Origin: Cenococcum geophilum
Taxonomy: Eukaryota
DNA length: 64,000 bases
Direction of reading: 5' to 3'
Assembly: GCA_050273025.1 (NCBI GenBank)
Contig: CP158635.1
Location: forward strand, 12,834,001-12,898,000
The translations under genes were made by a program, and so were the position numbers. Shown piece by piece: positions 22,156-63,100 of the stretch. The notes below the pieces were generated by a model. It saw only the letters and a list, made by a program, of their open reading frames with translations, was not told where the DNA came from and did no database searches. Positions within the stretch are counted from its first letter, which is position 1; each line of letters begins with the position of its first letter.

Positions 22156-23341
22156 ATACGTGCCTAAAAGTATTACAAAAAAATTTATTAAGTTATTCTA
22201 TAAGGGATTAACTTAAGAATATAATAGAGCTATAGGCTTAGTGTTAAGACTCTAAGAGGAGTATATTATTAATAAAATTTAGGGACTAGCAAGATAAGTT
22301 ATAAAAGAATATTTAGATTACTAAAGAAATAAACTAGTAAGGCATAAGCTATATAGAGGGCTATAACCTATTAAAATACCAGAAAGACTATGGGAGGTTA
22401 TATTATAGGACTTTATTATAAAGTTGCTAAAATTAAGAGATCCTATTACTAGATAAGATTATAACACAATTTTAGTAATAGTAGATAAGCTAATAAAGTA
22501 GGGATACTTTATAGCATGCATAAAAGAAATCTTAGCGGAAGATGTCGCTAGAATCTATGTTAAGGAAGTGTTTATAAGATATAGAGTTCTAAGTAAAATT
22601 ATATTAAATAGAGATCTAAGATTTATAGCAGTATTTTAGAAGGTATTCTTAGTAGAATAAGGAGTTTAAGTAGTAACTTCTACTATATATTATCTACAGA
22701 CAGACAGTTAAACGAAAAGATTAAATTAGACACTAGAGCAGTATCTAAGGCACTATATTAATTATATATAAAACAATTAGGTATTATTATTACTAGTTAT
22801 ACAGTTTGCATATAATATAACACCTTAAAAAGGAATGAGAACATTACTATTTAAGGCGAATTACGGATATAAGCTAAAAACATCGTTATTACTATAATAA
22901 GTAAAGAAAACAAGTAGTATAGCTAAGTAAAGAATGGAGATACTAATAAATCTTTATATAAACCTTACGGAAATAGTAAAGGTAGTATAGTAAAGAATGA
23001 AAAAGTACTATAACGTTAAGAGATCTAAGGGACCAAATCTTAAAAAGGGAGATAAAGTATAGCTACTATATAAAAATTTTAAGAGTTAACAACTAAGCAA
23101 GAAATTAGATTATATTAGATTAGGACCTTTTAAAATTAAAAAAAGAATTTTATTAGTTACGTTTAAGTTAAACCTACTAGCTAAAATAAAGATCTACCCT
23201 ATACAGTATATCGCAATATTAGAGCCAGTATATAGGAATATTAAGCCACTAGTTTACAAAGCAGATATATATAAAGGGTAAAAAGAAGATAAATAGTAAG
23301 TTTTAAAAATCGTTAATTATAAAAACGTTAATAATAAAATA

Positions 23342-26300: not shown

Positions 26301-27479
26301 TATTATTTAACTGTATTAAAGAAACTATCTATCTTAAGCTTCCTTATTACGTATCTTTTTCTATTTAGTTGCGCTTTAGTATCTAAGTCTAGCTATATTT
26401 AGATAGGGATATAGTCTAAGGTAAGTGCCTATTCTTCTTTAGGGTTGTACCTTTTAAGTCTCTGGTATAGGCCTTTATCTATAAATATAAGGTCAATTAT
26501 ACTTCTGGCGGTGCCTTATTGCCATATAATTACTCCTAGGGGGGTAGCTAGCTTAAGGCCCTAGATATCTATAGCTCTTAGTAAACACTTTAACTGTTAA
26601 TCTGCAGCAATATAGATACCCCCCTACCGCGGGTAGTAAAGGTTTATATCTCCTAGTAAGATAGACTCTATACCTTTAGTTTTTAGTAAGCTTATTACCG
26701 ATATAATATTCTCTGTTTATAGGACCCCTTCGACCCTAGGGTTATATATATTAATAATTTATACCGGTCCCCTATATATTTAGATTATTATAACTGCAAT
26801 ATCTGGGTTAACTGCCTGCTATAACTATAAGGATAGGCTAATAGCCTTACTAATTATAAAGCACACGCGTATAGCTGCTTTTGGTTTATATAGGAGCTGG
26901 AATCCTTAGGGGCAGTATATTAATTATATAAAGGTATTATAATACGGTTCTTGTATAGCAAGGATATAATATTTCTCTAGGTCTAAACTGTCTAGTAGGG
27001 GCCTTATAAGGCGGTGGTTTGTGTTACCGTAGTTATACTATATAATAGATAGGTGGCGGACCCCTAGCGAGGGTCCTTTGACTCTCCTTTATTCCTCGCT
27101 TCTTTTATTTCCACTTTCTCTAGGATATTTGGAGCTTCTATCTCTTGTGTCTACACCCTAGTTACTACTTATTTTATATAAAGCTTTCTATTCCCATGTC
27201 TTATATTCCTATTAGCGCTTCTATATCTAAATCTGTTATTATTACCAGTTCTTCCCCTATTTTTACTAGTCGGCTATATACCCTTTATGGGTTGGCTACA
27301 AATATTATATTTGCCGCATTAAGTCTAATTCTTAATTATCCTGGTCTTGAGCCTGCTGTCGCTGTCTATAGGGGTCTTCCTACGGGGCGTCCTCTCCCTT
27401 GTGTCCCCTGTGACCCTTATATCCCTAATTGGTCTAGTGATGTCGCACGGCGTCGCTTCTGGCCCGTTAAGGCTTAGGA
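23342..27479 (-). mobile_element. 5'-truncated LINE (fungal Tad-like), RIP-inactivated
   Basis: (AAT)n tail at ~23338-23361; ~11-12-bp TSD AATAATAAAATA (23330-23341, 27480-27491). Minus strand: APE motifs ILAIQEP ~26950 and LLGDINL ~26650; RT GIL*GLPL (=GIPQGSPL) ~25080 and GFVNN (=GFVDD) ~24990; C-terminal CCHC ~23750-23820. Confidence 0.92.
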
Positions 27480-27514
27480 AATAATAAAATATAGTATAAA
27501 GTAAAGTGGATAGG

Positions 27515-27615
27515 TGTAAGAGTATATATATTAGGTCCCGCCGCGCTTGCGACAAGTTCGCAAGCACTCTCAGTCTTTTTGGCCGTATGGCGACGTGGAG
27601 GCGGGCCACGTTACA
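27515..27615. mobile_element. Very short solo LTR-like insertion (101 bp)
   Basis: TGTAAG...GTTACA; TSD ATAGG; sits in the Gypsy B chromodomain (uninterrupted site at ~55930-55965). Confidence 0.88.
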
Positions 27616-27639
27616 ATAGGCTATAATGAGACTACCTAA

Positions 27640-28337
27640 AAACTACTAGAAAATTTAAAGAACGCTATAGAAAAGGTAGAGGAGTATTAAAAAAGAAAAG
27701 GTTAGGTAGTATTAATAAAGAAGAATTACTAAGGAATAAACCACCTAAAGAGGATATAGGAAGAACAATTGCTAAACTACTTAAAGTTGTTCCCTTCTTT
27801 ATTAAAGGAGAATCCGTTCTTTTATTACTAAGTTTTTATAAACCTTATTTTATAAATTTCTACTCCTTAAAACAAACCTTTTTATAAACTTTCTTAAGAC
27901 GGATTAACTAAGTAGACGCAGTAAGATAAAAATTAAAAGTGCGTTACTAAGCGTTAGCAGCCTCTTTTTTAGCGTTATAAGAACAATAAAGCTTAGCTAG
28001 AGCAACTAAGAGCTTATTATTAAGCTTTATAGTAGTAAATTAAATATAAGACCCTATAATAGATTACTTAGGGAACTTAAAAACTATTTAGAGTAATAAG
28101 GCGTGTATATTTAGTGTTAAAAATAGAACAAATATTATAAGACAATTAAATGTTTACCTTAGTGCACTCTAAATAAGAGGACGGTTATTAAAAGAAAGGA
28201 CTTACTAACGCAATATAAACTAACCCCTCTTTCGCGCAATAAGAATATAGAGATGGCATTATCTTACTAAGGGATAATATTATAGCAACGGTACAGGACC
28301 GACGAGCTGTAGAAGAAGAAGAAGGTACTTTAGGTAT
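27640..28337 (-). pseudogene. Antisense accessory ORF of Gypsy B (Zn2Cys6-like plus coiled coil), RIP-inactivated
   Basis: Homologous to 55970-56652: MPSLYSYCAKEGLVYIALVSPFF**PSSYLECTKVNI*LSYNI, with Tyr (TAT) at four of six Cys positions as expected from RIP of TGT. Confidence 0.7.
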
Positions 28338-28874
28338 AATAAGTAACAATATTAACTAAATTAATTAGATGGATATTATACCTCTAGTAAACAACCTGGA
28401 GATACTAGATATCTTTAAGGACAAAGATAAAGAGAAGGGAGATAGTGTTATAGACGCTTTAAGTATAATATTATAACTACTTAGAGAAGAGTTAGAAGAA
28501 GCTAGTTAGTTAATATAAGTATAGTCTAGGATAGAACCCGTAGAACCATATAACAAGGAATAGTAAGTAGAGTTATATAATATAATCTATATAATCTATA
28601 AGATCCGCTATAAAGCGAATAGAGTGGATAGAGTAGATAGAGCAATAACTTTCTTAGGAGTACGGTTATGTATTTAAGGACCCTTAGTCCCTACCTAGAT
28701 AGTTCCTTTCCTTATAGTAATTCTTAGAATATAATTAGAGTTAATCTATTAGGCAACCACTCCACTAGTTATTATTATGTTGTTAACTTATTTAAATCTA
28801 TACACCTAGCCTATTAACAGGACCTACTGTAGTTTAAGCTATAAGGTTCCGTTATAAAAGGGATAGCGAGAGAA

Positions 28875-30710
28875 TTATATAATTAAATAGTTAGGGGTCT
28901 TGGTGGTTAATACGTGCGTATATACGCACGCGGTCTTTAATAGACTTTAGTAAAATTTAATTAATCTAGTAGAACTTAGCAGAAGTTAATTAAGCTAGTA
29001 AAATTTGGCAAAATTTGGTTAAAGTGTTAGAATTTATCTATTAAGTGTTTTACTAAGACATTCCTACTATAACTAGGCTAGTTCTATTATAACCCCCCCC
29101 TTTTAGCCAAAGGTCTAAAACAATTTAATTTAGTAAAGAATTTATAATTTTATTATATATCGTATTTTCGCATTAGGTAGTAGTATAGAGTTTTACTAGT
29201 TCTAATTATTAAATAGACTAATTAGGATCTTCTATCCCTAGAATAAGAAATCGCTATTAGCTTAGTTAAGGCGGTAAGTAGAACTAATATCTTTATAGAG
29301 GGTCTTAGCAAGGCAAATCTAACTAATTAAATAACTTTAACTAGTGGTTAAAGTTCCTTAATATCTTATATAGTATATAACTATATTATAAACGTTATAA
29401 TATATTTTAAGTTCTTTTTAAATTTAAGCTTCCTACTATTGTGTTTCGTGTATTTATATTAGGTAATAGTTATTTGCCTTTATATTATATCTATCTAGCT
29501 AAAGTAGGCCGTAAAGGATAGTCCTTATAGAATTCTTTACTAGGGAAGGCGTATTAGTTTTAATTTACTTATAAGGTTTCTAGGTTTATATCTTATATCC
29601 CCCCCACTTAATAAAAGGTTTAAATTATTTAGATTATATCTTTTATTATATATTATTAATTAAGTTAATAAAGTAAAAACTGTTACCGTTATTAATAACT
29701 ATAGAAGGTAGTAGTAGCACTTCGCGAGTTATAGGTTTACCCTTTAAGGGTTATAGTAAGTTTACACAAAACGTTAGATATATTTTTATTTTAGTTAATA
29801 GTTTAAGCTTATAAGTATATGGACTTAGTTTCTTCTTAATTTAGTATAGGCCCACAAATTTCTAATTAAGTTTCTTTAAGGGCCGTTGAGTCTTTAGGTT
29901 TCGTATATTTAGGTATACTATATTACTTTTCTTAAAGTCCCACGCGGGAGCTCGTCCTTTATTTACATGCCATTCTTTTACTATTTAAGCGTACATTAAT
30001 TTACTTTATAATAATTCCGTTAACTACTTTATTTAATTAGTAAAGTTATATGCGTTAATTAGCTAAATCCGCTTAATCGTGGGTCCTATTATATTAATTT
30101 TAGGTTATAGTTTAAATCTAAGTTAAAGGTCTTATTTATAGGTTATATAGAACGGCGTTACGCCTATTAATTAATTAATTATATTATTTATAGTAAACTT
30201 AGTTAAAGGTAGCCACTTTTCCTAGTCGTCTTGTAGGTAGGAGTAGTATATTTATAAATATTATTGTCAATCGGAAGTCCGTGCACCGATTATAAGAAAA
30301 GAAGAACTCGTGTGTAGATTAATCTATGAAGAAAAGTGACTATATATACATGAGGTGGGTGGCAAAAAGGTAGACATGAGTCATAGGATGACGACAGAGC
30401 TGACGACGACAAATTGCCACCAGGTAGGCGGTAGGTGACCGTTCGACAATTATTCTATAATCGCGTTTATAATTTCAGTTTAGCTATTTATCTTTAAGTA
30501 AAATATAGTTAAGAGTCGTGTTTATATACTTAATCGTTTATATAGGGCTTGCTAAAAGTCTAAAATAAACTAGCTTCTGCAGTTAGATATTATTAAGTTA
30601 AAAAGTCCGTATAGCTTAAAGACATACTTAATAAAATATTCGGCTACTAATATTATATTAATTAAGTCTATAGGAATTATATATCGCATTTTTATAAGAT
30701 AGTTAATAAC
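28875..30710 (-). mobile_element. Truncated Gypsy D (3' LTR, chromodomain, integrase part)
   Basis: Reverse PPT (poly-C) at ~29093-29100 next to an LTR-like segment (~28875-29090). Minus strand: IKWGGY...*KP chromodomain ~29575-29615; VINYLIKMRYIIP (=VVDRLTKMRHMIP) ~30670-30710. LTR limits approximate. Confidence 0.8.
30265..30448. mobile_element. Solo LTR (184 bp, un-RIPped)
   Basis: TGTCAATCGG...CCGTTCGACA; TSD ATTAT. Confidence 0.92.
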
Positions 30711-43071: not shown

Positions 43072-45039
43072 ATGTCTTCCGCAGGCGATCTAAGATCCCC
43101 AGAGCCTAATACACGATTCCCCACTTCCGACACGAACGTTCCTCTGTCTTCAACTCTTCACACCCCTTGGCTGTGTGGCGCCATCGTGATACTCAATAGC
43201 CTTATTACGTCTGCCTTACCGGCGCCAGCAAGCCGAATCTTCGAAGTTGCACTATGTCGACGCTACTATAACTCTCACGGACCGGATAAGTTTCCGCCGG
43301 GCAGCAATGTCCCAGAGACATTCTGCAAGATAGAGGACATCCAGATCGCTGTTGTTTCTACGATTTCGACCATCACAGTGACTACAACGCTTGCTGGTAT
43401 GACACGCAGCGATCTAATCAATGATTCACTCATCCTACAGAAGTCATATTGACCCTCACTCTAGAACTTGTAGTGCAAATCCCAATGGGTGTTTTGGCTG
43501 ACCAGAAGGGCCGGAGACTGGCGCTGGCGCTCAATATCACTGGTATTCTATGCTATTGGTCCTGGGTGGCTCTTTCGGGCAAGTTGTTCTACGGAGCCCT
43601 GCTTAGTAGACTAGGCAGCTAACCCTAGTTAAGGACTATGTTCCGACCTATTTCCTTTCTGGTCGGTCCATTTCACACCGCTATTCTTTCTTATTGGAGG
43701 CGGGCCAAGAGTCACTAGCGCCCTTTTATTCGCAACACTGGCTGACGTTGTCGTACCCGAGAAAAGGTGAATGACACTTTGTGGTTCGGCTGGACAGCGT
43801 TGTTGACGTCTCATAGGACTGCCTACTTCTCATATATAGAGGCAGCGGGATACATCGCTGACATGGTGTCTCCCGCAATTGGGTCATTCTTGATGTCCTT
43901 CCATCTTGCTATCCCTTTCATAACTTTAATCGCTTGCTATGCGCTCTCCTACGTTCCTGTACTTTTCATCGCCGAAGCTCAGCCTCGGTCAACACCTGAG
44001 CATCCAGAGACCTTCGAAGGTGCCGAGGATGAGTTGTTGCTTGGAGACAACATAGAAACCGAAGGCGATAGCGATAACGACGAACCAGCCAAAGATGTCA
44101 ATAAAGGACATGGATTTTTTAAGCATAGCTTTGCAAGGGTGTATTTGCACCTCTTAGAGACATGGCGGATGGTTGCGAATGATAAGAACATCATACTTAG
44201 TTTAGCCGTGTTCTTTCTGCTCGTGGCGTCGCGGAGCTCAGCGAACTTGCTCTTACAGTATGTATCAAAGAGATACGCTTGGACTATAGCCCAGGTGAAT
44301 AATTTTATATTCAACTCCATAAATAGTGAGAATGCTAATAAGACGTAGGCCGGCTATCTATTTTCGCTGAAAGGCGCAATCTCTGCCCTCCTTTTCCTCG
44401 TGCTTATCCCTAGAATCAGCATCGTCATGATTAAGCATACTGCACTTGAACCGCACCAAATAAGTTTAATCATAGCCCAAATGAGCATATTTGTTCTCGC
44501 TCTCGGCTCCGCCATCATCGGATTTGCACCCAATATTTGGGTCTTGATATTTGGTTAGTTCTCGCGTTTTCCGTTCCTCTAAGTTTCACTGCTTGCCTGT
44601 TTCAAAATTCCTTGCATTACTCATTGCCACCATACCCCATGTTGACCTTGACCATAGGGTTTGTTATCCTTGCACTCGGTTCTGGCGCCGGCATTACTCT
44701 GAAATCATTTCTCTCTGCCACCATCAGCAACGGCTACTATGCCCGCCTCTATTCTGTGCTCGGTATCGCTGAGAGCCTGGGTATTTTGCTAGGAATGCCA
44801 TTATTGGCTGAAACATACTCGTGGGGGTTAAAGCACGGATCTTGGGCATTAGGTACCCCGTATCTCGTGTGCGCTGTAAGTATACTCGGATACGACTTGG
44901 ATTGACAGCATACACTGATAAGGTTTAGATACTATACACGCTTGTAAGTATGGTCGTGTGCTGCTTTAAGTGCCAACATGGTTCTCTTTTCCTTTTAATG
45001 GTTAGAATGCTGCATAATCGTTCCGGCTCTAGCTATTAG
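43072..45039 (+). CDS. MFS transporter (SLC46-like / UstT-like efflux type), ~527 aa, 7 exons
   Basis: Exons 43072-43396, 43465-43578, 43634-43766, 43817-44294, 44349-44553, 44658-44875, 44929-45039 total 1584 nt in frame. Loop CRRYY...ETFCKIEDIQ, motif A GVLADQKGRR, IGGGPRV. Alternative in-frame ATG at 43060. Subfamily call from memory. Confidence 0.88.
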
Positions 45040-48604: not shown

Positions 48605-49194
48605 TGTTATAGACGCTTTAAGTACGATGTTACAACTACTTAGAGAAGAGTCGGAAGAAGCTAGTTAGTTAATATAAGCACGGTCTAGAATGGAACCCGT
48701 GGAACTATATAACAAGGAATGGTAAGCAGAGTTACGTGATGTAATCTATGTGATCTATATAATCTGTAAGATCTATTATAAAGCGAATAGAGTAAATAGA
48801 GCAGATAGAGCGACAACTTTCTTAGAAGTACGGTTATGTATTTAAAGACCCTTAGTCCCTACCTAAATAGTTCCTTCCTTATAGTAATTTTTAGAATATA
48901 ATTAGAGTTAATCTATTAGGCAACCACTCCACTAGTTATTATTATTATTATTAACTTATCTATATTTATACACCTAGCCTATTAATAGGACCTACCGTAG
49001 TATAAGCTATAAGGTTCCGTTATATAATTACTACCTAGTTACGGTCCAATAAGTTAAACAATATGCCACCAAAAGCAGCCACTATAACGCCATTAACGGC
49101 GGCAACTACTTTAAGATTAGGTAACGATACTAATATAGCAGACACTAACTTATAACAACCTGTAATAGTAGGGTAGTTATAAGAAATAGTTAAC

Positions 49195-52100
49195 TGTTAC
49201 GGACGCTTTAAGTACAATATTACGACTACTTGGAGAGGAGTCGGAAGAAGCTAGTTGGTTAATACAAGCACGGTCCAGGATGGAACCTATGGAACCATGT
49301 GACGAAGAATGGTAACCGAGGTCATATGAGGTGCTACGAGAGGAACGAGAGGAACGAAGGGAACTTACGTACCTTATGTATAAGACGTACATTATGTACA
49401 AGAAGGATTTTATAGGAGTACGGTTGTGTATTTAAGGACCCTCAGTCCCTACCTAGATAGTTTCTTCCTTGTAGTAATTCTTAGAATATAATTAGAGTTA
49501 ATCTGTTGGGCAACTACTCCACCAGTTATTATTACGTTATTAACTTACTTGCAATACCTATATACCTAGCCAATTAACAAGTTCACCGTAGTCTCTACTA
49601 CAAGGCTTTATTACATAATTACTACCACGGTTACGGTTTTAATAAGTCAAACAATATACCACTAAAAGCAGCCACTATAACGCTATCGACGGCGGCAACT
49701 ACGTTAGAATTAGGTAATGATACCAGTATGGCAGACACTAACTTATAATAACCTATAACAGTAGGACAGTTACAAACAATAGTTGATTAGTTAACGGGAG
49801 ATAGTGCGGCACTTAAAAATAGGATTAATGGGATAGGAGCAGCAAAGGTTAAGTTACTATTAATTAAAAGATTCTCAGGAGAAAGATCGAAGCTTAAAGG
49901 ATTCCTTACGTAAATATACTTTAAGGTTGCGTAGGAAGGAGTAAAGCTGGTAATAACTATGGATTAAGTAGTATATACAGGATTGTTCTTATTAGGAAGA
50001 GCACTTAAATAGTTTAAGCCTTACCTTACAGAGATACAAGCAAATAGAATGACAACAACGAACTAGGAAGTACGGTTTATATTTTTAAGCTAGAACGGAT
50101 TTATAAAGCAACTTACACAAATATTTAGGGACCTAGAAGCAACGACTATAGTAGAAAGAAAGCTTTAGGACCTAACGTAATGGACTTTAGCGATTAAGTA
50201 TACAATATAATTCCAAACGCTAGCTATATAACTTAAGTAGAATAACAAGGCGCTTATGGTATAGTATAAATAGGGACTTAAGGCTAAAGTCTAAGACGTA
50301 ATTATTCTAATAGAAGATGCGGATACCCTAAGGGAATTAATAGATTAAGCAATCAAGATTAACAACAAGATCTTCTAAAGGAAACAGGCTAAGAGAAGCC
50401 AGGATAGAGTTCTATAGTTATATAAGGCGCAGAGTACGCAACAACTAAAGCTAAATTAGAAACTATGGTATGGCGCAGAGCTAATAAACCTAAGTGGTAC
50501 TAAAGAAGCCTATAAGAGATGGAGTAAGAAACTATAGAAACCTAAAGGTTAAGGATCTAGTAATTATAGGACTAAGGAGCATAGGCTAAACTAGGGATCT
50601 TAATAGCAGAAGACATTTAGGCGGACTCTATAATAAAGTTAATAGTTTAGAGACGGAGCTTATATAAATTGCGGAAAATAGGGTCACTTTATAAGGGATT
50701 GTAAAGATGGTCAGAGTTACCATATAATAAAGGGAACTAGACTAGCAGCACATAATACACACATATAAAGAGATGATAGTACGCTGTAAGGAACAAAAGA
50801 ATATTCAATCAGAAGTTTTGCGTTTTATTATAATAACGCATACCAAATTTATAAAGACGCCAAGTACGGTGCAAGCTATTAGCCATAAGAGCTAGAGTTA
50901 AAGGGACTTAGAGAAACCAAAGAGTTAGACAAAGAATAAGATCGACTCTATAAGCTAAATCAAGATATCACAGTAATATGCGGATAAAGATTAGCAACAA
51001 TAATAATGGAGTTAGAGTACTTATTAATTAATAGTAATAAGGACAGTAAAGGAACTAACTAGGGGTATCTAAACCTTAATAACGTAATAGAAGTAGAGAC
51101 TAAGACCGCCGTAGAGCAAGGTTTAGTAACGGGTATCATAACACCGTTAGATACGGCATCTATCGCTTTATAAGACGGAAGGAGTAATATCCAGAGACGA
51201 TTAAGCAAGTAGACGACTGCTAGTGCTAGCTTACCACTTAATAAAGGCAAAAGGCCAAAGGCTTAAGATTCTTAAGACAAGATAAGGCAAGCTTAAGGAC
51301 CCACAACGGATAGAAACCGATAAAGTAGAGTAGCAGCTTAGTTCAGAGACATACGAATAAGCTTAGGATAAGAATTCCTAACAGTATAAGACTCTTAAGA
51401 TAAGATAAGTGAGATCTAGGACTCTTAAGACAAGACGAGGACACTAGTTAAGCCTAGTTAGACTAAGGTAGGGGCTAAGCTTAAGTTAGAAGCAAGCCTA
51501 GGATTAAAGAATCTAAGGGGTTAAGAATTCGGAGTATAAATTAGGACACCTATAAGCAAAAGGCAAAAGGCTTCTTTATAGATTAGAGAATCTATAACGC
51601 AAATAGCAATTAGACTAAGAGACAGATATATAGACCTAAAGGACTTACCAGGGGAATATAGTATTCAGCCTAAAGATTAAAAAGTTAATACTAAGATTAA
51701 GAAGCATAAAGACTTCAAGGATCCACTTATAAAACGCAACGTAAAAGAAACTATAGAGGAATTTAGGGCAAAAATTACCTTATAGCAAGAACAGAAACTA
51801 GATAAGAGATCTAGTATATTAGGACGTATAAAGGACAGAGCGCTAGTATAAAGAATTACTAATAGGCCTAGAATAGGCACACTAAGAGCTAAGTAGCTTA
51901 CTAAACTGGAATAAGAAGAGGATCTAGGGATTTCTACTAGGTTCGAAGAACGATATACTAAAGGCTATTACGACGCAGTAATAAAGAGATATTTCCTTAC
52001 GGACGAGCTATATACACTTAAGTAGCTATACTAAAAGTAGTATAGGCAACGACATAATAATAAGTGGGAAGATTTCTATATATAGTTGGACGAGAAAGTT

Positions 52101-55100
52101 ATCTAAGACTACCCAATCATAGAGAAGGCTATAACTTATATTAAAGGAGCCTTAATTATAACATTAAAAGATCTAGAGGAGTAATTAGAGGACTAGAGAA
52201 GCGAAAGATAAATTTTAATACCCGCAAACGAAGTTGCAACGCTTAGATTAACACAAGAGAGGTTTAAACTTAAGGATAAAGACAAGCTAAGAGTTAACCT
52301 AAGACATTAAGCACATTATACACTATTATGGATAGTATGCGTAAATAATGCGTGCAACATACATAAAGCACCAAAAGATAAAAATTAAAAGTATCTAATA
52401 AGGATATATTAGATAACAGACGAGGCGAAATATTAAAACGCTAAGTATATATATAGTTAGCACCTAGTAGAAGTTTAAGAATAAGGGGACTTAATACTTT
52501 AACCAGAAAGATTCCTTACGGAAGAATGCCTAGATAAATAATAATGGTGGGAATGTCTAGAGAATACTTATCTATAGTATATTAAAGACAAAAAGCAAAC
52601 TAAGTATTGGCCTAAGATAGACTAAGTACAAATAGGATCTAGTAGCTAATAGTTAGGAAAAGTAGAGGCCTACGGGACCAAAGGGAGCTAGTAGTAAAGC
52701 CTTAGACCCTTAAAGGAATTTAAGGACGACACCTAAATTTACGAGTTAAGTAGCAAGATCAACAGTTTAAGGCATTAATAGATAGTGGAGTAATAAGGAA
52801 CCATATCTCGCTAGCAGCAGTAAAAAGAATAGGGTTACTATATAGACAAAAGAAATGTTTTTACCTATTAGTAACAATTTTAGGAGATCTAATAGCCTAT
52901 AGAGGAGGCATTATTAATCTTAAAACAGGACCTATTTAGTTAACCATTAAAGGAAAACTAGTTAAGATGTCTTTCGACATATTACTATTAGGGAATAATA
53001 AGGCAGTACTAGGAATGCCTTAGTTACAAGAATACAATCTAAAGATTAATTAGGTTACAAGTTAGGTCGATATCAGAGATATATAACGCCATAAGATGCA
53101 ACAACAAGCCAAGTTAGTATAGTACTAAGTAGGAGCGACCTACGAAGAAACAGAGAAAGGGCTAAGCCATATACCAAAAAGATACCACAAGTATGGCAAG
53201 AAACTATAGTCACCTAAGAGTAAAAAGCTGTTAAAGCATATAGTATGGAACTATAAAATAGAATTAGAACCAGAAATAAATCTAAGATTCTTTCCAATCT
53301 ATAAGCTTACTAAAGAAGAAAGTAAAGCGCTAAAAGAGTTTGTCTAAGAGAACTTATAAAAGGGATACATCAGACCATCGCAATTATTAGCGGGATATCC
53401 AGTACTGTTCGTACCAAAAAAGAATAGTAAACTAAGGCTATATATCAACTATAGATAGTTAAACAGCATTACTAGAAAGGATAGGTATCCTTTACCCTTA
53501 ATTAGCGAAATCTAAAATAGGATAGGCAATGCGTAAATCTTTATAAAGATAGATCTAAGATAGGCGTACCATTAGATTAGAATTAAGGAAGGCAACAAAT
53601 AAAAGGCAGCCTTTAGGTTAAAGGAAGGACTATATAAACCATTAGTTATGCAATTCGGGCTTATAAACACATTAGTAACGTTCTAAAAGCGTATTAATAA
53701 TATATTAGGAGAATATTTAGATAAATTTATTATAGTATACCTTAACGATATTATTATCTACTTAATAAACAAGGAAGAGTACGGAGAATATATTAAGTGG
53801 GTTTTAAAGAGACTATAGGAAGAACAGATGCTAGTAGCAATTAAGAAATGCGAGTTCTTTACTAGGAAGACCGATTTTATTAGATTTATTATTAAACTAG
53901 GCCAACTTAGTATAGATCTAAAGAAGATTAAAGCCATAGTAAATTGGCAGGAACTAAAGAACGTTACACAGTTAAGATCGTTCCTAAGGTTTTATAATTA
54001 CTATAAAAGGTTTATAGCGCAATAGTTAAAGGATATCAAACTATTTATATAATTAATAAAGAAAGAAGAACTATAGGTATGGGGAGAAGAATAGTGAGAA
54101 CTCTTTAAGAAAGTTAAAGAGTTGTTTACCCAGGAGCCAGTTCTTAAGATCTATTAACTAGGACTAGAGACGGTTATAAAAACAGATATATTAGACTTTA
54201 CACTAGGAGCATATTTTATATAAAAGCATCTAGATAGATAGTATCCAGTGGCATATTATAGTCGAAAGATAATACCACTAGAGTTAAACTACAACATCTA
54301 CAATAAGGAGTTATTAGGTATAGTTATAGCACTAAAGGAATAGAGAGCATTCTTGCAAGGCATAAAAAAACCATTTATAGTTAAAATAGATTATAAGAAC
54401 CTAACAGGGTTCCTAATAACAAAGGAGCTTAACTAAAGATAGGTTAAATAGGTAGAGATGCTTATAGAATACTATTTTAAGATTTAGTATATTAAGGGTA
54501 TAGACAATACGCGAGCCGATGTATTAAGTTAAAAAGCTAAACTATAAAATAACAATAAGCCATTAGGGGCTTTACTATAAAAAGACACAGACGGATTAAT
54601 TAGGTACAATTATCTAAAAATTATAGCAACTTAAGAGAATAAGTTAGAAAAGGTCTATAAGACACTAGAAAGCTTTTAAGTATAAAGAATTCTAAAAGCA
54701 CAGCTAGAAGATCTATAGTCGGATATATACGGAAATTAAGAGGTAAAGTATATCCCAAGAAGCATAGTAGAGTAGTTTATAGAGGACTTCTATAAGGGAC
54801 TAACTTAAGGATATAACGGAGCCATAGGCTTAGTATTAAGACTCTAGGAGGAGTATATTATTAACGGAATCTAAAGGATAGCTAGAAAGGTTACTAAAGA
54901 GTATCTAGATTGTTAAAGGAACAAACTAATAAGGCATAAGCCGTATAGAGGGCTATAACCTATTAAAATACCAGAGAGACTATAGGAGGTTATATTATAG
55001 GACTTTATTATTAAGTTACTAAAATTAAGAAATCCTATTACCGGACAAGATTACAACGTAATCTTAGTGATAGTAGACAAGCTTATAAAGTGGGGATACT

Positions 55101-57181
55101 TTATAGCCTATACGGAAGAAATCTCAGCGGAAGATATTACTAGAATCTATATTAAAGAAGTGTTTATAAGATATAGAGCACTAAGCAAAATTATATTAGA
55201 TAGAGATCTAAGATTTATAGCAGCATTCTAGGAAGTATTCTTAGCGGAATAAGGAGTTCAAGTAGTAACTTCCACTATATATTATCCGCAGATAAACGGT
55301 TAAATGGAAAGATTAAACTAGACACTAGAGCAGTATCTAAGGCACTATATTAATCACGTACAGAACAATTGGGTATCGCTATTACTAGTTATATAGTTTA
55401 TATATAATATAACACCACAAAAAGGAATAGGTATATTACCATTTAAGGCGAATTATGGATACGAACTAAGAATATTATTATCGCTATAATAAGTAAAGAA
55501 AATAAGTAGTAGAGCTAAGTAAAGAATAGAGACTTTAATAAATCTTTATATAAACCTTACGGAAACAGCTAAGACAGTACAGCAAAGAATAAAAAAGTAC
55601 TACAATGCTAAGAGATCTAAGGGACTAGATCTTAAGGAGGGAGATAAAGTATAGCTACTATACAAAAATTTTAAGAGTTAACAACTAAGCAAGAAGTTGG
55701 ACTATATTAGACTAGGACCTTTTAAAATTACATAAAAAATTTCATTAGTTACGTTTAAGCTAAACCTACTAGCTAAAATAAGAATCTACCCTATATAGTA
55801 TATCGCAATGCTAGAGCTAGCACACGGAAATATTAAGCCATTAGTTTATAAAGCAGACACGTACAGAGGACAGGAAGAGGATAAATAGCAAGTTTTAAAG
55901 ATCGTTAATTACGAGGACGTTAATAACGAAATATAGTATAAAGTAAAGTGAATAGGCTATAATAAGACTACCTAGGAGCTATTAGAGAATCTAAAGAACG
56001 CTATAGGAAAGGTACAGGAGTATCGGAAGAGAAAAGGTTAGGTAATATTAATAAAGAGGAATTACTAAAGAATAAGCCGCCTAAGGGGGACCTAGGAAGA
56101 GCGATTGCTAAACTACTTAGAGTTATTTCCTTCTCTATTAGAAGAGAATCCGTTCTTTTATCACCAAGTTCCTATAGACCTTATTCTATAAGTTTCCACT
56201 CCTTAGAATAAACCTTCTTATATACCTTCTTAAGGCAAAGTAAATAGGCAAATACCGCGATGCGAGTATTTAGGGCCTTCTATTCCGCATCCCGAGAACG
56301 CTTAAGCTTAGTAAGGGCCTATACTAGGTTATTATTAAGCTTTACAGCAGTAGATTAAACATAAGACCCTATAATAAATTACTTAGGGAACTTAAAGACT
56401 ATTAAGAGTTATAGGACGCGTATACTTAGCGTTAGAAGTAGAACGAATATCGCAAGACAATTAAACGTTTGCTTTAGTGCACTCTAAACAAGAAGAGGGT
56501 TGCCGAGACGAAGAACTTGCTAGCATAATATATACTAACCCCTCCTTTAAGCAACGAGAACACGGAGATAGCATTATTTCACTAAGCGATAATATTATAG
56601 TAATAGTGCGAGCATGACGTTACGCGTGTGAAGAAAAAGAAGCTTTAGGCATTATAAGTAATAATATTAACTAAATTAATTAGACGGATATTACACCTCT
56701 AGTAAACAACTTAGAGATACTAGGTATCTTTGAGGATAAAGATAGAGAGAAGGGAGATAGTATTACGGACGCTTTAAGTATAATATTATAACTACTTAGA
56801 GAGGAGTTGGAAGAAGCTAGTTAGTTAATATAAGCACGGTCTAGAATAGAACCCGTAGAACTATATAACGAAGAATAGTAACTAAGGTCATATAAGGTAC
56901 TATAAGAGGAACGAGAGGAACGAAGGGAACTTATATACCTTATGTATAAGACGTACATCACGTATAAGAAGGATTTCATAGGAGTACGGTTATGTATTTA
57001 AGGACCCTTAATCCCTACCTAGATAGTTCCTTCCTTATAGTAATTCTCAGAATACAATTAGAGTTAATCTATTAGGCAACCACTCCACCAGTTATTATTA
57101 CGTTATTAACTTACTTGCAATACCTATATACCTAGCCCATTAATAAGTCCACCGTAGTCTCTACTATAAGGCTTCGTTACA
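49195..57181 (+). mobile_element. Gypsy C, full length (7987 bp), sister subfamily of B/E
   Basis: LTRs 49195-49615 and 56761-57181; TSD TTAAC. Zinc knuckle ~50660-50703, ALIDSG 52772, VYLND (=YLDD) 53735-53749, integrase, chromodomain ~55880-56030, PPT before 56761. Confidence 0.96.
55970..56652 (-). pseudogene. Antisense accessory ORF of Gypsy C: Zn(II)2Cys6-like cluster plus coiled coil, one intron
   Basis: ATG 56652; PCSRCLKEGLVYIMLASSSSRQPSSCLECTKANV*LSCD = C-x2-C-x6-[Y for C]-x13-C-x2-C-x8-C. Putative intron 56423-56369, then a heptad-like helical exon. Confidence 0.78.
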
Positions 57182-57949
57182 TTAACCGGTTAACGGAAAA
57201 TAATATAACACTTAAAAATAGGATTAATGGGATAGGCGTGGTAAAGATTAAGCTACTATTAATTAAACAATTCTTAGGAGAAAGATTGAAGCTTAAAGAA
57301 TTCCTTACGCAAATATACTTTAAGGTTTTATAAGAAGGAGCTAAGTTACCAACACCTATAGATTAAGTGGCGTATATAGGATTGTTCTTATTAGGAAAGG
57401 CACTTAAGTAGTTTAAGCTTTATCTTATAGAAATACAAGTAAACAGAATAACGACTATAAACTAAGATATATGGTTTATATTCTTAAGCTAGAGTGGATT
57501 TATAGAGCGACTTATATAAATATTTAGGGACCTAGAAGCAATAGTAATAGCGAAAAAAAAGCTTTAAAACCTAACGCAATAAACCTTAGTAATTAAGTAC
57601 ATAACGCAGTTCTAGACATTAGCTATCATCGGCAAAATATAGTACCCTTTTAATGGCCTCAATGGTTGTGGTTAACGCAATTGGCGCGCAGTTGAGGGCA
57701 TTTGGCAACTCGACCGACTAGCCTATGTCGTGTTTTTTTGACACGCAGCCTGCGCGCAGCCTGCGCGTAACCTACGCGCAACCTGCGCGCAACCTGCTAG
57801 TAATCTACGCATTTAGCAACCATAATTATATTTACCTCTTTTATACTAATAATATATTTTAAATAAATAAAAGCTATTTTAAAGCTATTTATAAGGCTAG
57901 CAAAATAAATATTATTATTTTAGATAATTTAATATAATATAGCGATAGT

Positions 57950-58352
57950 TCTCTTCTACCTATCTACCTATTGACTTACCTACCTGCCTGCATCGCCTAC
58001 CTATTTATATTACCTACCTATCTACATCTACCTATCTACATTTGCCTACCTATTTACATCTACCTACCTATCTATATTTACCTACCTATTAATATTTACC
58101 TACTTATTTATATCTGCTTACCTATCTACATCTACCTACCTATTTATATTTACTTATCTATATCTACCTACCTATTTATATCTGCCTATCCGTTAGCATC
58201 TACCTACCTATTTATATCTACTTGCCTATCTATATCTACTTACCTATCTATATCTGCCTACCTATCTATATTTACTTACCTATCTACATTTACCTACCTG
58301 TCTATATCTACCTACCCGTTAGCATCTACCTATTTATGCCTACCTATCTATA
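57950..58352. repeat. Low-complexity CTATCTAC/CCTA array
   Basis: Read directly. Confidence 0.9.
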
Positions 58353-58409
58353 CTACCTTAATTCGATCGATTAATCGAATCGTTTATAGTGTTAGCTGGC
58401 TAGTCGTTA

Positions 58410-59250
58410 TCATCTAGCTCTAGCGACGGTTATCTAGTTCTAGTAACGGTCGTCTAGTTCTAGCGACGGTTGTCTAGCTCTAGCAATAGTTGTCTAGTTC
58501 TAGTAACGGTCGTCTAGTTCTAGTAACGGTCGTCTAGCTAGCGACAGTTATCTAGTTCTAGCAACGGTTGTCTAGTTCTAGTAACGGTCGTCTAGCTAGC
58601 GATAGTCGTCTAGTTCTAGCAACAGTTGTCTAGTTCTAGTAACGGTCGTCTAGCTAGCAACGGTTATCTAGTTCTAGCGACAGTTGTCTAGTTCTAGTAA
58701 TGGTTGCCTAGCTAGCGACAATCGTCTAGTTCTAGTAACGGTCGTCTAGCTAGTAATGGTCGTCTAATTCTAGCAACAATTATCTAGCTCTAGTAACGGT
58801 TGTTTAGTTCTAGTAACGGTTGTCTAGCTAGTAATAGTTATCTAGTTTTGGCGACGGTTGTTTAGTTCTAGTAATAGTTATCTAGTTCTAGCGACGGTTA
58901 TCTAGCTCTAGTAACAGTTATCTAGTTCTAGTAACGGTCGTCTAGCTAGCAACGGTTATTTAGTTCTAGCGACGGTCGTTTAGTTCTAGTAATAGTTATC
59001 TAGCTAGCGACAGTTGTTTAGTTCTAGCAATAGTTGTCTAGTTCTAGTAATAGTTATCTAGCTAGCAACAGTTGTCTAGTTCTAGTAATAGTTATCTAGC
59101 TAGCGACGGTTATCTAGTTCTAGCGACAATCGTCTAGCTTTAGCAACGGTCGTCTAGTTCTAGTGACGGTTGTCTAGCTAGCAATAGTTGTCTAGTTCTA
59201 GTAACGGTTATCTAGTTCTGGCAACAGTCGTCTAGTTTTAGTAACGGTCC
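58410..59250. repeat. Minisatellite of mixed 20-bp and 16-bp units (GTCTAGTTCTAGCGACGGTT / GTCTAGCTAGCGACGG)
   Basis: Roughly 45 head-to-tail units, no unique spacers. Confidence 0.93.
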
Positions 59251-59381
59251 TCTACTAGCTGCCGTTCTAGTGCCTCCCTAGGTAGGGAGGATATAAAGAA
59301 GAAAGGAAGGGTAAAAAATAAGGTAGCTATATAGGGTAGAGGCATGTATAGAGGCTATCGGGAATATAGCGGGGACCTGAT

Positions 59382-59758
59382 ACAGAGCTTCGTATAGAGC
59401 CTCTGTACGCAGAGCTTTGCGCAGAGCCTCGTGCAGAGCCTCTATACGCAGAGCTTCTCGCAGAGCCTCGTGCAGAGCCTCTATACGCAGAGCTTCGCGC
59501 AGACCCTCGCGCAGACCCTCGCGCAGACCCTCGTGTAGAGCTTCGTGCAGAGCTTCGCGTAAAGCCTCGTGCAGAGCTTCGTGCAGAGCTTCATGCAGAG
59601 CCTCTATACGCAGAGCTTTATATAAAGCCTCGTATAGAGCCTTATGCAAAGCTTTATGCAGAGCTTTATACAGAGCCTCTATACGCAGAGCTTCGTGCAA
59701 AGCCTTTATACGTAGAGCTTTATATAGAGCTTCGTGTAGAGCCTTGTGCAGAGCCTCT
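59382..59758. repeat. 12/18-bp minisatellite (GCAGAGCTTCGT)
   Basis: Read directly. Confidence 0.92.
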
Positions 59759-59888
59759 AAGTAATAAGATTATAAGATTATATGAGATTGTATAAGATTG
59801 TATAAGATTATATATAATAGTTAAATATATAGTATATAACTTTACCTTAATCGCACGTTAAGAAATATACAGTTAGCTTTTAAAGTTG

Positions 59889-60155
59889 TTAAGTAGGTTA
59901 ACTGCATATTAAGTTAGTTAAATTGTATGTTAAGTAGGTTAACTGCGTGTTAAGTTAGTTAAATTGCATATTAAGTAGGTTAACTGCGTGTTAAGTTAGT
60001 TAAATTGCATATTAAGTAGGTTAACTGCGTGTTAAGTTAGTTAAATTACATGTTAAGTAGGTTAACTGCGTGTTAAGTTAGTTAAATTGTATATTAAGTA
60101 GGTTAACTACGTGTTAAGTTAGTTAATTGCGTGTCGAGTTAGTTAAATTGCATGT
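59889..60155. repeat. 41-bp dimeric minisatellite (TTAAGTAGGTTAACTGCGTG + TTAAGTTAGTTAAATTGCATA)
   Basis: About 6.5 units. Confidence 0.9.
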
Positions 60156-63100
60156 TAATTACGCGAAACGCGAAAACCAAAGTCTACTTAAATCTCATCC
60201 TGCGAATATTTTCCCGATAATATAAGTTAAGTAGAATAATAGGGCGCTTATGGTATAGTATAAACAGGGACTTAAAGTAAAAGTCTAGGACGTAATTATT
60301 CTAATAGAAGATGCGGACACCCTTAGGGAATTAATAGATTAAGTGATTAAGATTAATAATAGGATCTTCTAAAGGGAACAGGCTAAAAGAGGCTAGGATA
60401 GAGTTCTATAGTTATATAAGGCGTAGAGTACGCAATAACTAAAGTTAAATTAGAAACTATAGTATAGCGCAAAGCTAATAAACCTAAGTAGTACTAAGGA
60501 AACCTATAAGAGATAGGGAAAACAGCTATAGAAACCCAGAAGTTAAGGATTAAGTAATTAAAGGACTAAGAAGTATAGGCTAAACTAAGGATCTTAATAG
60601 CAGAAGACGTTTAAGCGGACTCTATAGCAAAAGTAATACTTTAAAAACGAAGCTTATATAAATTACGGAAAATAGGGTTATTTTGCCAGAGACTATAAAA
60701 ATGGTTGGAGTTACTACGTAGTAAAGGGAACTAGATTAATAGCATATAATATATATATATATAGAGGGATAATAGTATACTACGAGAAATAAAAGAATGT
60801 TTAATCCAAAGTTTTACGTTTTGTTATAATAACGTATACTAAGTTTATAAAGACGCTAAGTACGGCGTAAGCTATTAGCTATAAAAGCCAGAGTTAAAAG
60901 GACTTAAGGGAATTATAGAGTTAGATAAAGAATAAGATTAACTCTATAAGCTAGATTAAGATATTATAGCAATATATAGATAAAGATTAGTAACAATAAT
61001 AATAGAGTTAAAGTACTTATTAATTACTAGTAATAAGGGAAAAAAGGGAACTAACTAGAAGTATCTAAACCTTAATAACGTAATAGAAGTAGAGACTGAA
61101 ACCGCTATAGAGTAAGGTTTAGTAACGGGTATTATAATACTATTAAATACGGTATCCATTACTTTATAAAATGGAAGGAGTAATATCTATAGGCGATTAA
61201 ATAAGCAGACAACTGCTAGTACTAGCTTACCACTTAATAAAGGTAAAAGGCTAAAGGCTTAAGATTTTTAAGATAAGATAAAAGATAACTAAGATTTTTA
61301 AGACGAGATAAGGCACGCTTAAGGACCTATAACGGACGATAACTGATAGAGTAGAGTAACGGCTTAGTTTAGTAATATATAAATAAGCCTAGGACGAAGT
61401 TTCCTAAAGGTATAAGATTCTTAAAGTAAGATAAATAAGATTTAAGACTCTTAAGATAAGATAAGAACACTAGTAAAGCCTAGTTAGACTAAGGCTAAAA
61501 TATAGCTTAAGAAAAAAGCAAGCTTAGGATTAAAGAATCCAAGGGACTAAGAATTTGGAGTATAAATAAGGACACCCGTAAGTAAAAAGTAAGAGGCTTT
61601 ACTATAGATTAGAGAATCTACAGTATAAACAGCGGTTAGACTAGGAGATAGATATATAGACCTAGAGGACTTACTAGGGGAATATAGCATTTAGCCTAAA
61701 GATTAAAAAGTTAATACTACAATTAAGAAGTAAGAGAACTTTAAGGATCTAATTACGAGACGCAAATAATAAGAAACTATAGACGAATTTAGAGTAAGAA
61801 TCTTTATATAGTAAGAATAGAAACTAAATATAAGATCTAGTATAATAAGTTGTATATAAGACAGAGTACTAGTATAAAGAATTACTAATAGACCTAAAAT
61901 AGGCACGCTAAGAGTTAAGTGGCTTATTAAACTAGAAAATAAAGAGGATCTAGGGATTCTAACTAGGTTTAAGGAACGGCATATAAAGGGCTATTACAAT
62001 ATAGTAATAAAAAGATGCTTCCTTATAGATAGGCCGTATACACTCTAATAGCTATACTAAAGGTGGTATAGGCAGAGATATAATAACGAGTGGGAAGATT
62101 TCTATATATAGTTAGACGAGAAAGTTATCTAAAACCACCTAATTATGGAAAAGGTAATAAATTATATTAAGGGAGCCTTAATTATAACGTTAAAGAATCT
62201 AAAGAAATAATTAAAGGATTAGAGAAGCGAAAGACGTATCTTAGTACCTATAAATAAAGTCGCAATGTTTAGATTAATATAATAGAAGTTTAAACTTAAG
62301 AATAAAGATAAGTTAAGAGTTAACCCAAGACACCTAGTATACTATATGCTATTATGGATTATATATATAGACGATATATATAAGATGCATAAAAACCCAA
62401 AAGAAAGGAACCGGAAATACCCTATAAGGACATATTAGGCGCTAAATAAGCGATAATATAGGAATACTAAGTATATATACGGCTAGTATCTAGTAGAAGT
62501 TTAAGAGTTAGGAGACTTAATACTTTAACTAAAAAGATTCCTTATGGAAGAATACTTAGACAGATAGTGGTAATAGGAATACTTAGAGAATATATATCTA
62601 TAGTATATTAAGGACAAAAAGCGAATAAAGTATTAGCTAAAGAATAAGTTAAGTATATAAGGATCTAGCAGCTAATAGTTAGGAAAAGTAGAGGCCTATA
62701 GGACCAAAGGGAGCTAGTGGTAGAGCCTTAGACCCTTAAAGAAATTTAAAAATAATACCTAAATTTATAAATTAAATAGCAAGATCGACAGTTTAAAGTA
62801 TTAGTAGATAGTAGAGTAATAAGGAACCATATCTTATTAATAGCAGTTAAAAGAATAGGGCTACTATATAGATAGAAAGAGTACCTATATCTACTAATTA
62901 CAATCTTAGGAGATCCGATAGTCTATAAAGGAGGCACTATTAATCTTAAAATAGGACCTATTTAAATAACCATTAAAGGAAGATAGATTAAAATGTCTTT
63001 TAATATATTACTATTGGGGAATAATAAGGTAGTATTAGGAATACCTTAGTTATAGGAATACAATCCAAAAATCAATTAGGTTATAGGTTAGGTCAATATT

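Follow-up and report, generated by a model that had tools for sequence, protein, structure and literature searches.

The strand opposite to gag-pol in a fungal Ty3/Gypsy chromovirus-type element carries what we take, with a probability of about 80%, to be a real third gene of the element, present here as a copy inactivated by RIP. The element (element C) lies in a 64,000-nucleotide stretch of Cenococcum geophilum DNA, referred to here as the window, and the antisense gene runs along the minus strand from an ATG at 56652-56650 to a stop at 56003-56001, in the interval that separates the end of pol from the polypurine tract and 3′ LTR (Table 1). We found that the antisense strand has been under purifying selection at the codon level in the past, in two blocks that each have their own frame, and that every copy we examined is dead.

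Table 1. Coordinates of the antisense gene and the neighboring features of element C, with the second copy of the gene in the window
Feature	Positions	Strand	Remarks
Coding block 1, copy C	56392..56652	-	87 codons from the ATG
Cysteine motif	56452..56562	-	C-x2-C-x6-C-x13-C-x2-C-x8-C
Spacer	56340..56391	-	Between the blocks; candidate 52-nt intron, GT 56391-56390, AG 56341-56340
Coding block 2	56001..56339	-	+1 frame; 112 codons and the stop
Chromodomain-like C-terminal part of pol	55880..56030	+	Read-through translation; overlapped by the 3′-terminal codons of the antisense gene
Polypurine tract, element C	56731..56760	+	Immediately 5′ of the 3′ LTR; read from the sequence
3′ LTR of element C	56761..57182	+	Doubles as the upstream LTR of element D
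Second copy of the antisense gene	27665..28337	-	Equally RIP-damaged; 3′ end of Gypsy A; lower bound approximate

Upstream of the chromodomain-like part of pol, the plus strand encodes matches to RVT_1, RNase H, aspartyl protease, and the Tf2-1 SH3 domain of integrase. We take 55880-56030 to be chromodomain-like from its position and from a motif; the Pfam Chromo profile gave no significant match, with an E value of 2.8 in the sister copy L002 and no match in the window copy. The 3′ LTR is 89% identical to the 5′ LTR at 49197-49616, and in less mutated copies its first letters are TG. A preliminary description of this DNA had placed the antisense gene between the chromodomain and the 3′ LTR, which agrees with a polypurine tract at 56731-56760 and an LTR that starts at 56761; the lower bound of 55970 given there required revision, as the coding region stops earlier, at 56003-56001. 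A diverged homolog had also been assigned to another subfamily, Gypsy B. A second antisense copy is indeed present at ~27665-28337, but it does not represent a separate subfamily: the segment 27615-28882 belongs to Gypsy A (14449-23341) as its 3′ part, which a 4.3-kb insertion has split off. This segment is 78% identical to copy C, the mismatches comprising 152 transitions and 42 transversions, and RIP-type transitions form the bulk of the mismatches between the window copies.

Because a de-RIP consensus opens long frames on both strands, we dropped “open in the de-RIP consensus” (a 10% rule) as evidence and adopted codon statistics based on transversions only, in which synonymous (S) and non-synonymous (N) changes are counted and RIP changes are excluded. 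The copies were those of the window together with copies from metagenome contigs, in which 602 of 624 pattern matches encode relatives and from which 79 loci were retained; about 70 copies contributed to the substitution counts. As a control, the integrase gave S15/N3 (ratio 0.04, transversions only). The antisense frame of block 1 gave S43/N36 (ratio 0.25, Fisher p 2.5e-11), and the pol frame on the opposite strand gave a ratio of 0.50. For block 2 the antisense counts were S61/N88 (ratio 0.42, p 6.6e-9), and the plus frame that shares its wobble position had a ratio of 0.55. In the integrase control, as in the two blocks, transversion diversity was highest at third codon positions, and the non-RIP substitutions in these ~70 copies were mostly synonymous in the antisense frame. 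The indels followed the same periodicity: within 56026-56646, 17 of the 19 indel types were multiples of 3 and the remaining two were 1-nt singletons, and all of the types common to at least two copies were multiples of 3. The frame of the antisense gene also had the lowest stop count per copy in both blocks. The margins by which block 2 is assigned to the minus strand are small, with ratios of 0.42 versus 0.55 and with 4.49 stops per copy in the antisense frame versus 4.83 in a plus frame.

These data bear on two readings in which there would be no antisense gene. According to the first, the antisense frame is a mere mirror of a long C-terminal extension of pol that reaches the polypurine tract. 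The pol frame is nearly open from the integrase to 56680 in a liberal de-RIP consensus, it has its wobble position in common with antisense block 1, and in block 2 a plus frame almost as stop-poor as the antisense frame runs through 81 codons of copy C without a stop. However, open frames in a consensus that opens both strands prove little. At the cysteine motif of block 1, the antisense frame gave S15/N9 (ratio 0.15) and the pol frame gave S3/N21 (ratio 1.49), so that purifying selection on the minus frame is present when RIP sites are excluded, as the proposal of an antisense gene had called for. Past 56004, constraint on the pol frame is absent (ratios of 1.28-2.08), and at ~56390 the wobble class switches from 1 to 0, a change that is incompatible with one pol frame throughout. 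The mirror-image reading is already disfavored by these results, and we regard it as very improbable.

According to the second reading, the region is non-coding and owes its conservation to a cis-acting polypurine tract, integrase-binding ends, an antisense promoter, or an RNA. The columns of the polypurine tract are nearly without transversions in the copy alignment, and the same is true of the ~100 nt that adjoin and include it (56653-56760), which are kept even in distant families; a cis-acting explanation may apply to this segment. Across 56004-56339 and 56392-56652, by contrast, we observed three-base periodicity, a synonymous excess, and multiple-of-3 indels. For the two blocks the non-coding reading is already disfavored, and we find it scarcely credible.

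Block 1 begins at the ATG, from which translation reproduced exactly the minus-strand peptide quoted in the preliminary description. TAA stops interrupt it at codons 11, 64, and 87 in copy C. Its length is divisible by 3 in 80 of 80 copies, and its antisense frame contains 2.58 stops per copy, the lowest value of the six frames (5.8-9.9 elsewhere). Block 1 is open in 0 of 80 copies, each of which has 1-5 internal stops and a GC content of 29-39%. No intact copy of the antisense gene was found among the 80 copies examined, and this counts against our best explanation.

The cysteine motif of block 1 is more than a chance pattern: it was found in 277 of 330 collected proteins, and its six positions are occupied only by C, Y, or, in a single case, W. 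Both window copies have Tyr at the third position; the 277 pattern-bearing ORFs have C there in 34 cases and Y in 243. RIP changes TGY to TAY, never the reverse, and C is still present in 34 of 277, and so the third Cys is plausibly ancestral and the Tyr RIP-derived, in keeping with the original suggestion of a six-cysteine motif. All six cysteines are intact in only two ORFs among the collected relatives, P0123 and P0154. Further conserved Cys/Tyr positions lie downstream of the six, which suggests that the motif may be part of a larger Cys-rich module.

It had been proposed that this motif belongs to the Zn(II)2Cys6 (Gal4-type, PF00172) family, in which case the gene would encode a host-captured, element-borne transcription factor. 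Proteins of this family bind two zinc ions and, as dimers, recognize CGG-type DNA half-sites; the PROSITE zinc-cluster pattern is C-x2-C-x6-C-x5-12-C-x2-C-x6-8-C. The spacing x2, x6, x13, x2, x8 of the 277 proteins fits this family except in the central loop, which at 13 residues is one beyond the range of 5-12. Occupation of the motif positions by C or RIP-derived Y (once W) throughout a wide family also favors a zinc cluster, as does the long helix predicted after the motif, an arrangement seen in Gal4-type factors; a disordered C-terminal tail follows. The Pfam Zn_clus profile aligned weakly to the window copy over the second half of the domain, at 13.7 bits (E 0.071), but the gathering cut-off is 21 bits. 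This cut-off was never reached in the copies and relatives scanned, in which weak matches were seen in 2 of 38, 2 of 63, and 0 of 22 relatives. The 22 included P0123 and P0154, which have all six cysteines and neither of which matched Zn_clus at E values up to 1. No PDB chain was matched at E values up to 10 by the family profiles A2 and A3 or by P0154, although Gal4-type domains have been solved. Membership of PF00172 was thus not borne out. In an AlphaFold2 model of P0154 (122 aligned relatives), pLDDT is below 50 over the Cys region, and the extra conserved downstream cysteines again differ from the Gal4-type arrangement. The confident helices in the P0154 model are located in upstream read-through, outside the gene. 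We consider it unlikely that the antisense gene is a true member of the family. The label of a Gal4-type zinc cluster for the six-Cys motif should be kept out of annotation until an intact relative passes a family test. We found no report in the literature that links an antisense gene of a retrotransposon to a zinc cluster.

Block 2 is predicted to encode a long helix, followed by a basic stretch and a Ser/Pro-rich disordered tail with a conserved hydrophobic/acidic motif at its end; in copy C it contains four internal RIP stops. An AlphaFold2 model of a sister copy of block 2 has a helix at residues 2-58 (pLDDT 93-98) and pLDDT values below 50 from residue 75. The length of the block is divisible by 3 in 77 of 80 copies, its frame is kept across subfamilies that differ by in-frame indels, and the same relation between the blocks, in which frame f is followed by frame f+1, is found in a second family copy (L050:369-884). 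The coiled-coil-like second exon of the preliminary description survives as a helix-rich block in another frame, but it starts ~57 nt further downstream than had been claimed. A 231-residue read-through query, the second half of which was in the wrong frame, retrieved no relative of 127-405 aa, a negative result that for this reason carries little weight.

How the two blocks are joined is a separate question. A 55-bp intron with a RIP-changed AT donor and a TAG acceptor had been placed directly after the peptide LSCD, but this segment (56394-56448) is coding (S7/N4, ratio 0.18, Fisher p 0.004) and encodes a motif that is kept throughout the family. When it was removed in silico, the downstream frame still reached stops that are fixed among the copies. 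The only stretch without a codon signature between block 1 and block 2 is the spacer at 56340-56391, in which all six frames have ratios of 0.74-1.3. Judged from its sequence features, the spacer could be an intron of 52 nt or, if the in-phase alternative ending at AG 56329-56328 is used, of 64 nt. The spacer is 52 nt long in 80 of 80 copies, and the donor GT is present in 78 of 80; at the acceptor, the 80 copies have AG (52), AA (14), AT (9), or GG (5). Several observations argue against an intron: the candidate acceptor is absent in 9 copies that have a different codon there, the equivalent segment of the L050 family is 51 nt long and out of phase, and the 106-aa relatives have Leu instead of Val as the donor codon and a first frame that continues to a stop at codon 107. 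The candidate donor, GTTCCC, is far from the usual fungal donor.

We aligned reads and contigs from four runs at 80% likeness, some of which were only guessed to be RNA and may be DNA, and observed no antisense spliced joint. The 17 raw RNA reads that aligned (from one run, all less than 90% alike) fell on the chromodomain part only, with none on the antisense gene. Read depth was also seen over the LTR, possibly from DNA or from solo LTRs. A 54-nt skip at 56262-56315 was rejected as a splice; it is an in-frame length variant with GC..AG on the plus strand, in a run whose RNA nature was guessed.

These observations could also be accommodated without an intron, if the blocks encode separate products, if they are joined by a +1 frameshift, or if a Cys-rich ORF of ~90-106 aa is by itself the gene. 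Several properties of the related families are consistent with this. Their first frame encodes a conserved peptide up to the stop at codon 107 and overlaps an open +1 frame, the ORFs P0130 and P0276 switch frames within ~20 nt, and the GT at 56391 is not kept across families. The poor donor and the lack of RNA support in the runs examined point the same way, and a short ORF alone is also suggested by the label brtn-106, which denotes a named variant of brtn, the antisense gene of Boty elements (PMC4227169). In the family of copy C, however, there are fixed stops in both frames inside 56355-56385 (a TAA at 56385-56383 in frame 0 and a TAA at 56357-56355 in frame +1), and so a frameshift there cannot join the blocks. 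A Ty1-like +1 frameshift at a conserved AGG codon was rejected as well, because the +1 frame hits a fixed TAA three codons on. Block 2 has no start Met of its own and yet is under codon-level constraint, and the spacer, which is invariant in length, shows a codon signature in none of the frames. On balance, we consider a gene without an intron distinctly unlikely.

Searches with the antisense gene retrieved 65 close ORFs, 230 clusters at 50% identity (E up to 1e-3), and 1960 ORF calls or proteins (E up to 0.01). An element-borne antisense accessory gene, as was first suspected from the window, is thus widespread and, from the codon counts, is not a mirror of pol coding. Among the 120 listed relatives, a length of 106 aa was the most frequent. 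The name BRTN does not occur among the relatives listed, for which the sole source name is “hypothetical protein.” A search of the ESM Atlas with P0035 returned only bacterial hypothetical clusters with scores below 0.9, and Pfam DUF3716 matched none of 63 relatives at E values up to 10.

The preliminary description had anticipated that related antisense ORFs might already be published, and this is the case. Among known genes, brtn of Boty elements comes closest; it was first reported in 2011 (Zhao 2011, Virology 417:248), is reported to be transcribed, and is described in passages that cite it (PMC8365987, PMC7264820, PMC4227169, and PMC5987419), and the likeness is one of position and description. 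In PMC9409477 and PMC10820295 the string brtn is the surname of an author. According to these passages, brtn shares with the present gene a fungal Gypsy host element, which is chromodomain-bearing for brtn and putatively so here, a location between pol and the 3′ LTR, the antisense orientation, and a small ORF. The name brtn-106 also stands beside the length of 106 aa noted above. In contrast, neither a zinc-cluster-like motif nor a second block or an intron is mentioned for brtn in the citing passages, and the copies analyzed here have all been killed by RIP. More distant parallels, compared by description, are the aORF-3R ORFs of the plant Gypsy elements Grande, RIRE2, Retand, and PvRetro13, which are likewise antisense and located between pol and the 3′ LTR of an LTR retrotransposon, and which are conserved within each family and of unknown function (PMC7264820). 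They differ in their plant hosts and non-chromovirus lineages, and the passages of that source mention no Cys6 motif.

If the main reading is correct, the antisense gene and brtn of Boty-like elements would be genes of one kind. Blocks 1 and 2 would be joined by splicing out a short intron of 52 or 64 nt that begins with the GT at 56391. An antisense intron of this type would survive retrotransposition, because the genomic RNA is the sense strand, on which the segment does not read as an intron. The predicted product of ~200 residues would bind zinc through its cysteines and pair through its helix, and it may be a nuclear protein that acts on nucleic acid, with the LTR of the element itself or its chromatin targets as the likeliest sites. 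Such a protein would resemble a miniature Gal4-type factor or, in function, HBZ of HTLV-1. HBZ is an antisense, partly spliced gene expressed from the 3′ LTR, and it encodes a coiled-coil (bZIP) regulator. The likeness concerns the probable mode of action only, namely an antisense gene beside the 3′ LTR, a pairing helix, and plausible self-regulation; HBZ belongs to a vertebrate retrovirus, is unrelated in sequence, and has another DNA-binding module. A broader idea, which we hold only tentatively and think more doubtful than not, is that the brtn-type genes form a large and old family of antisense, intron-bearing regulators with a six-Cys zinc-binding DNA-binding module, a dimerizing helix, and an activation-like tail, and that they are a fungal counterpart of HBZ that controls the element's own LTR or its integration sites.

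At the level of the window the message is modest, as the locus is dead and RIP-mutated and the intron had earlier been misplaced. LTR retrotransposons are usually viewed as gag-pol machines. A conserved third gene that is reversed and probably spliced would mean that one lineage of fungal chromoviruses carries its own nucleic-acid-binding factor. With 230 clusters at 50% identity and ~2000 ORF calls, the family is far larger than the single report of 2011 suggests, and it is therefore worth a proper functional study.

On the minus strand of Gypsy element C, between the end of pol and the 3' LTR, the peptide quoted in the preliminary description is matched exactly when translation begins at the ATG at 56652. 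In this frame, codons 11, 64, and 87 are TAA and the third position of the cysteine motif is occupied by Tyr, and straight read-through in the ATG frame meets 20 stops in 231 codons. A diverged homolog had been described at the same position in "Gypsy B" (~27640-28337). A second copy of the gene is indeed present there and reads similarly, with more Cys-to-Tyr changes, but there is no separate Gypsy B: because self-comparison maps element A as resuming at 27615, this is the 3' end of A, which is 78% identical to C and belongs to one family with it. Mismatches between the two window copies of the region comprise 152 transitions and 42 transversions, and this dominance of transitions is the signature of RIP. 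None of 80 copies is intact; each has 1–5 internal stops and a GC content of 29–39%.

As RIP makes transitions only, codon statistics were based on transversions alone, using variants present in at least two of 70–80 aligned DNA copies, and each variant was classed as synonymous (S) or non-synonymous (N) in all frames of both strands (table). In block 1, the ATG-proximal part of the gene, stops are rarer in the gene frame (2.58 per copy) than in any of the other frames (5.8–9.9), and the length is divisible by three in 80/80 copies. Between 56026 and 56646, 17 of the 19 indel types are multiples of three, the remaining two being single-copy changes of 1 nt. From the codon ratios, the low number of stops, and the in-frame lengths and indels, we conclude that the antisense strand is the selected coding strand and that its frame does not simply mirror pol. 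The segment lying between the antisense ATG and the LTR (56653-56760, 100 nt) has hardly any transversions and is kept even among distant families, in which ORF callers run on through it; it probably comprises the polypurine tract together with a cis element or a promoter for the antisense gene. Most of its few variants are synonymous in the gene frame (S5/N2), a hint that the gene may extend upstream.

Gypsy elements of the window and codon statistics for the antisense gene and a pol control
Feature	Position	Basis or principal frame	Compared frame
Gypsy element A	14449-23341 and 27615-28882, interrupted by 4.3-kb insertion	self-comparison	
Gypsy element C	49195-57182; LTRs 49197-49616 and 56761-57182	self-comparison	
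Gypsy element D	from 57189, continues past window end	self-comparison	
Polypurine run	56731-56760	adjoins LTR	
Integrase core (control)		pol frame S15/N3, ratio 0.04	wobble-sharing opposite frame, ratio 0.58
Cys motif	56449-56565	antisense S15/N9, ratio 0.15	pol frame S3/N21, ratio 1.49
Block 1	56392-56652	antisense S43/N36, ratio 0.25, p 2.5e-11	pol frame S25/N51, ratio 0.50
Block 2	56339 down to stop 56003-56001	minus, +1 frame, S61/N88, ratio 0.42, p 6.6e-9	

At about 56390 the class of variable codon positions changes from 1 to 0. In the region of block 2, the pol frame is unconstrained and the plus-strand frame with common wobble positions has a ratio of 0.55; stops per copy number 4.49 in the antisense frame versus 4.83 in that plus-strand frame. 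The strand margin is small here, and the antisense reading is favoured because it has the lower ratio of the two frames in 4/4 sub-blocks, because its translation stays in frame across subfamilies with in-frame indels of 3 to 33 nt, and because the predicted fold is one helix (residues 2-58, pLDDT 93–98) followed by a disordered tail. A plus-strand frame of 81 codons (55966-56211), distinct from the pol frame, is open in the heavily mutated copy C, has wobble positions in common with antisense block 2, and across copies holds nearly as few stops (4.83 versus 4.49). One contig from sequencing run X16, guessed to be RNA data, is missing exactly 54 nt (56262-56315); the site falls where block 2 begins, a hypervariable stretch in which copies vary by in-frame indels of 9 to 33 nt. 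On one metagenome contig, a copy of the window's family lies beside a member of a second antisense-gene family (L050:369-884; about 62% protein identity to the relative P0229), and the latter has the same two-frame (f to f+1) layout.

The preliminary description placed an intron directly after the sixth Cys, which is refuted: the segment in question (56394-56448) has S7/N4 in the gene frame (ratio 0.18, p 0.004) and codes for a motif conserved family-wide, and its excision leads to fixed stops. The only segment that lacks a codon signature in any frame (ratios 0.74–1.3) is the spacer between the two blocks, 56340-56391, which is free of indels and 52 nt long in 80/80 copies. It starts with GT in 78/80 copies and ends in AG in 52, AA in 14, AT in 9, and GG in 5. 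As both gene frames have one fixed stop within it, the spacer must be skipped in the window's family, and the right phase would be given by a 52-nt intron or by a 64-nt intron ending at the AG at 56329-56328. Judged from these sequence features, splicing of the antisense gene seems somewhat probable. Several points limit certainty about splicing: the candidate donor is a poor one, a different codon stands at the acceptor in the nine copies with AT, the equivalent segment in the L050 family is 51 nt, and the 106-aa relatives have Leu as donor codon, with their first frame running on to codon 107 as a conserved peptide.

The spacing x2, x6, x13, x2, x8 was found in 277 of 330 collected proteins, in which the six motif positions hold C, Y, or (once) W and nothing else; more conserved C/Y positions lie downstream. 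All six Cys are kept only in the relatives P0123 and P0154. The third position is Y in 243 ORFs and C in 34, the latter across distant clusters. RIP converts TGY to TAY, never back, and this one-way change, together with the presence of C in distant clusters, argues that the ancestral residue was probably Cys despite the Y majority. The predicted product resembles a Gal4-type zinc cluster in having six compatibly spaced Cys followed by a long helix and a disordered tail. Membership of the Zn(II)2Cys6 family (PF00172) was not borne out: the Zn_clus maximum was 13.7 bits against a cut-off of 21 bits, and weak matches occurred in 2/38, 0/22, and 2/63 relatives. For DUF3716, a Pfam scan of the 63 relatives gave no match at E up to 10. 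The family profiles had no match among PDB chains at E up to 10, and AlphaFold2 gave no confident fold for the Cys motif. A Gal4-like mechanism would be an attractive but unproven reading.

The window of this filamentous fungus is AT-rich and filled with repeats. Read-through translation of element C yields an aspartyl protease, RVT_1, RNase H, and a Tf2-1-type integrase SH3 domain. A chromodomain-like part is discernible by eye, with tryptophans lost to RIP, and in a sister copy Pfam Chromo reaches E 2.8 at best. In less mutated copies the LTR starts with TG at 56761. Ahead of C, two tandem copies of a 590-bp unit, made up of the LTR and about 170 bp of leader, occupy 48605-49784. Internal sequence of D directly follows the 3' LTR of C, without the ~170-bp leader; C and D therefore have one LTR in common, an arrangement suggestive of unequal recombination between elements. 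At a matching internal position, A (16227-18201) and D (57626-60220) carry a G+C-richer minisatellite insert (periods of 12, 15, 18, 20/21, and 38 nt) that C lacks, and ORFs within it had no Pfam match. The 4.3-kb insertion in A (23341-27615), just ahead of the antisense gene, has an AT skew opposite to A's and is therefore probably a further, inversely oriented repeat; its sole long ORF (27124-27477) had no Pfam match. The only host-gene-like signal noticed in the window was a plus-strand fragment of a major-facilitator transporter gene (43746-44348; MFS_1, E 9e-6, below the Pfam cut-off) in a G+C-richer island at 39–45 kb.

The short antisense ORF has 65 close relatives of 49–118 aa. At 50% identity there are 230 clusters with E up to 1e-3, 138 of which reach 1e-10; a profile search collected 1960 proteins (E up to 0.01), and 602 of 624 pattern matches on metagenome contigs were confirmed as places of relatives. 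Every relative is nameless or "hypothetical." Passages of four papers (PMC8365987, PMC7264820, PMC4227169, PMC5987419) concern brtn, a gene of Boty elements (fungal chromoviruses) that lies downstream of pol and ahead of the 3' LTR in antisense orientation. In these passages, brtn is said to be missing from the current B05.10 annotation (PMC8365987) and is placed with plant aORFs that are likewise antisense and have no known function (PMC7264820), a variant is called "brtn-106" (PMC4227169), and a BRTN match is reported for Monilinia (PMC5987419). We found no literature tying a retrotransposon antisense gene of the brtn kind to a zinc cluster. The antisense accessory gene at this locus is real, although this copy of it is dead, and it is probably of the brtn type, an already known type to which the window copy would add a further example.
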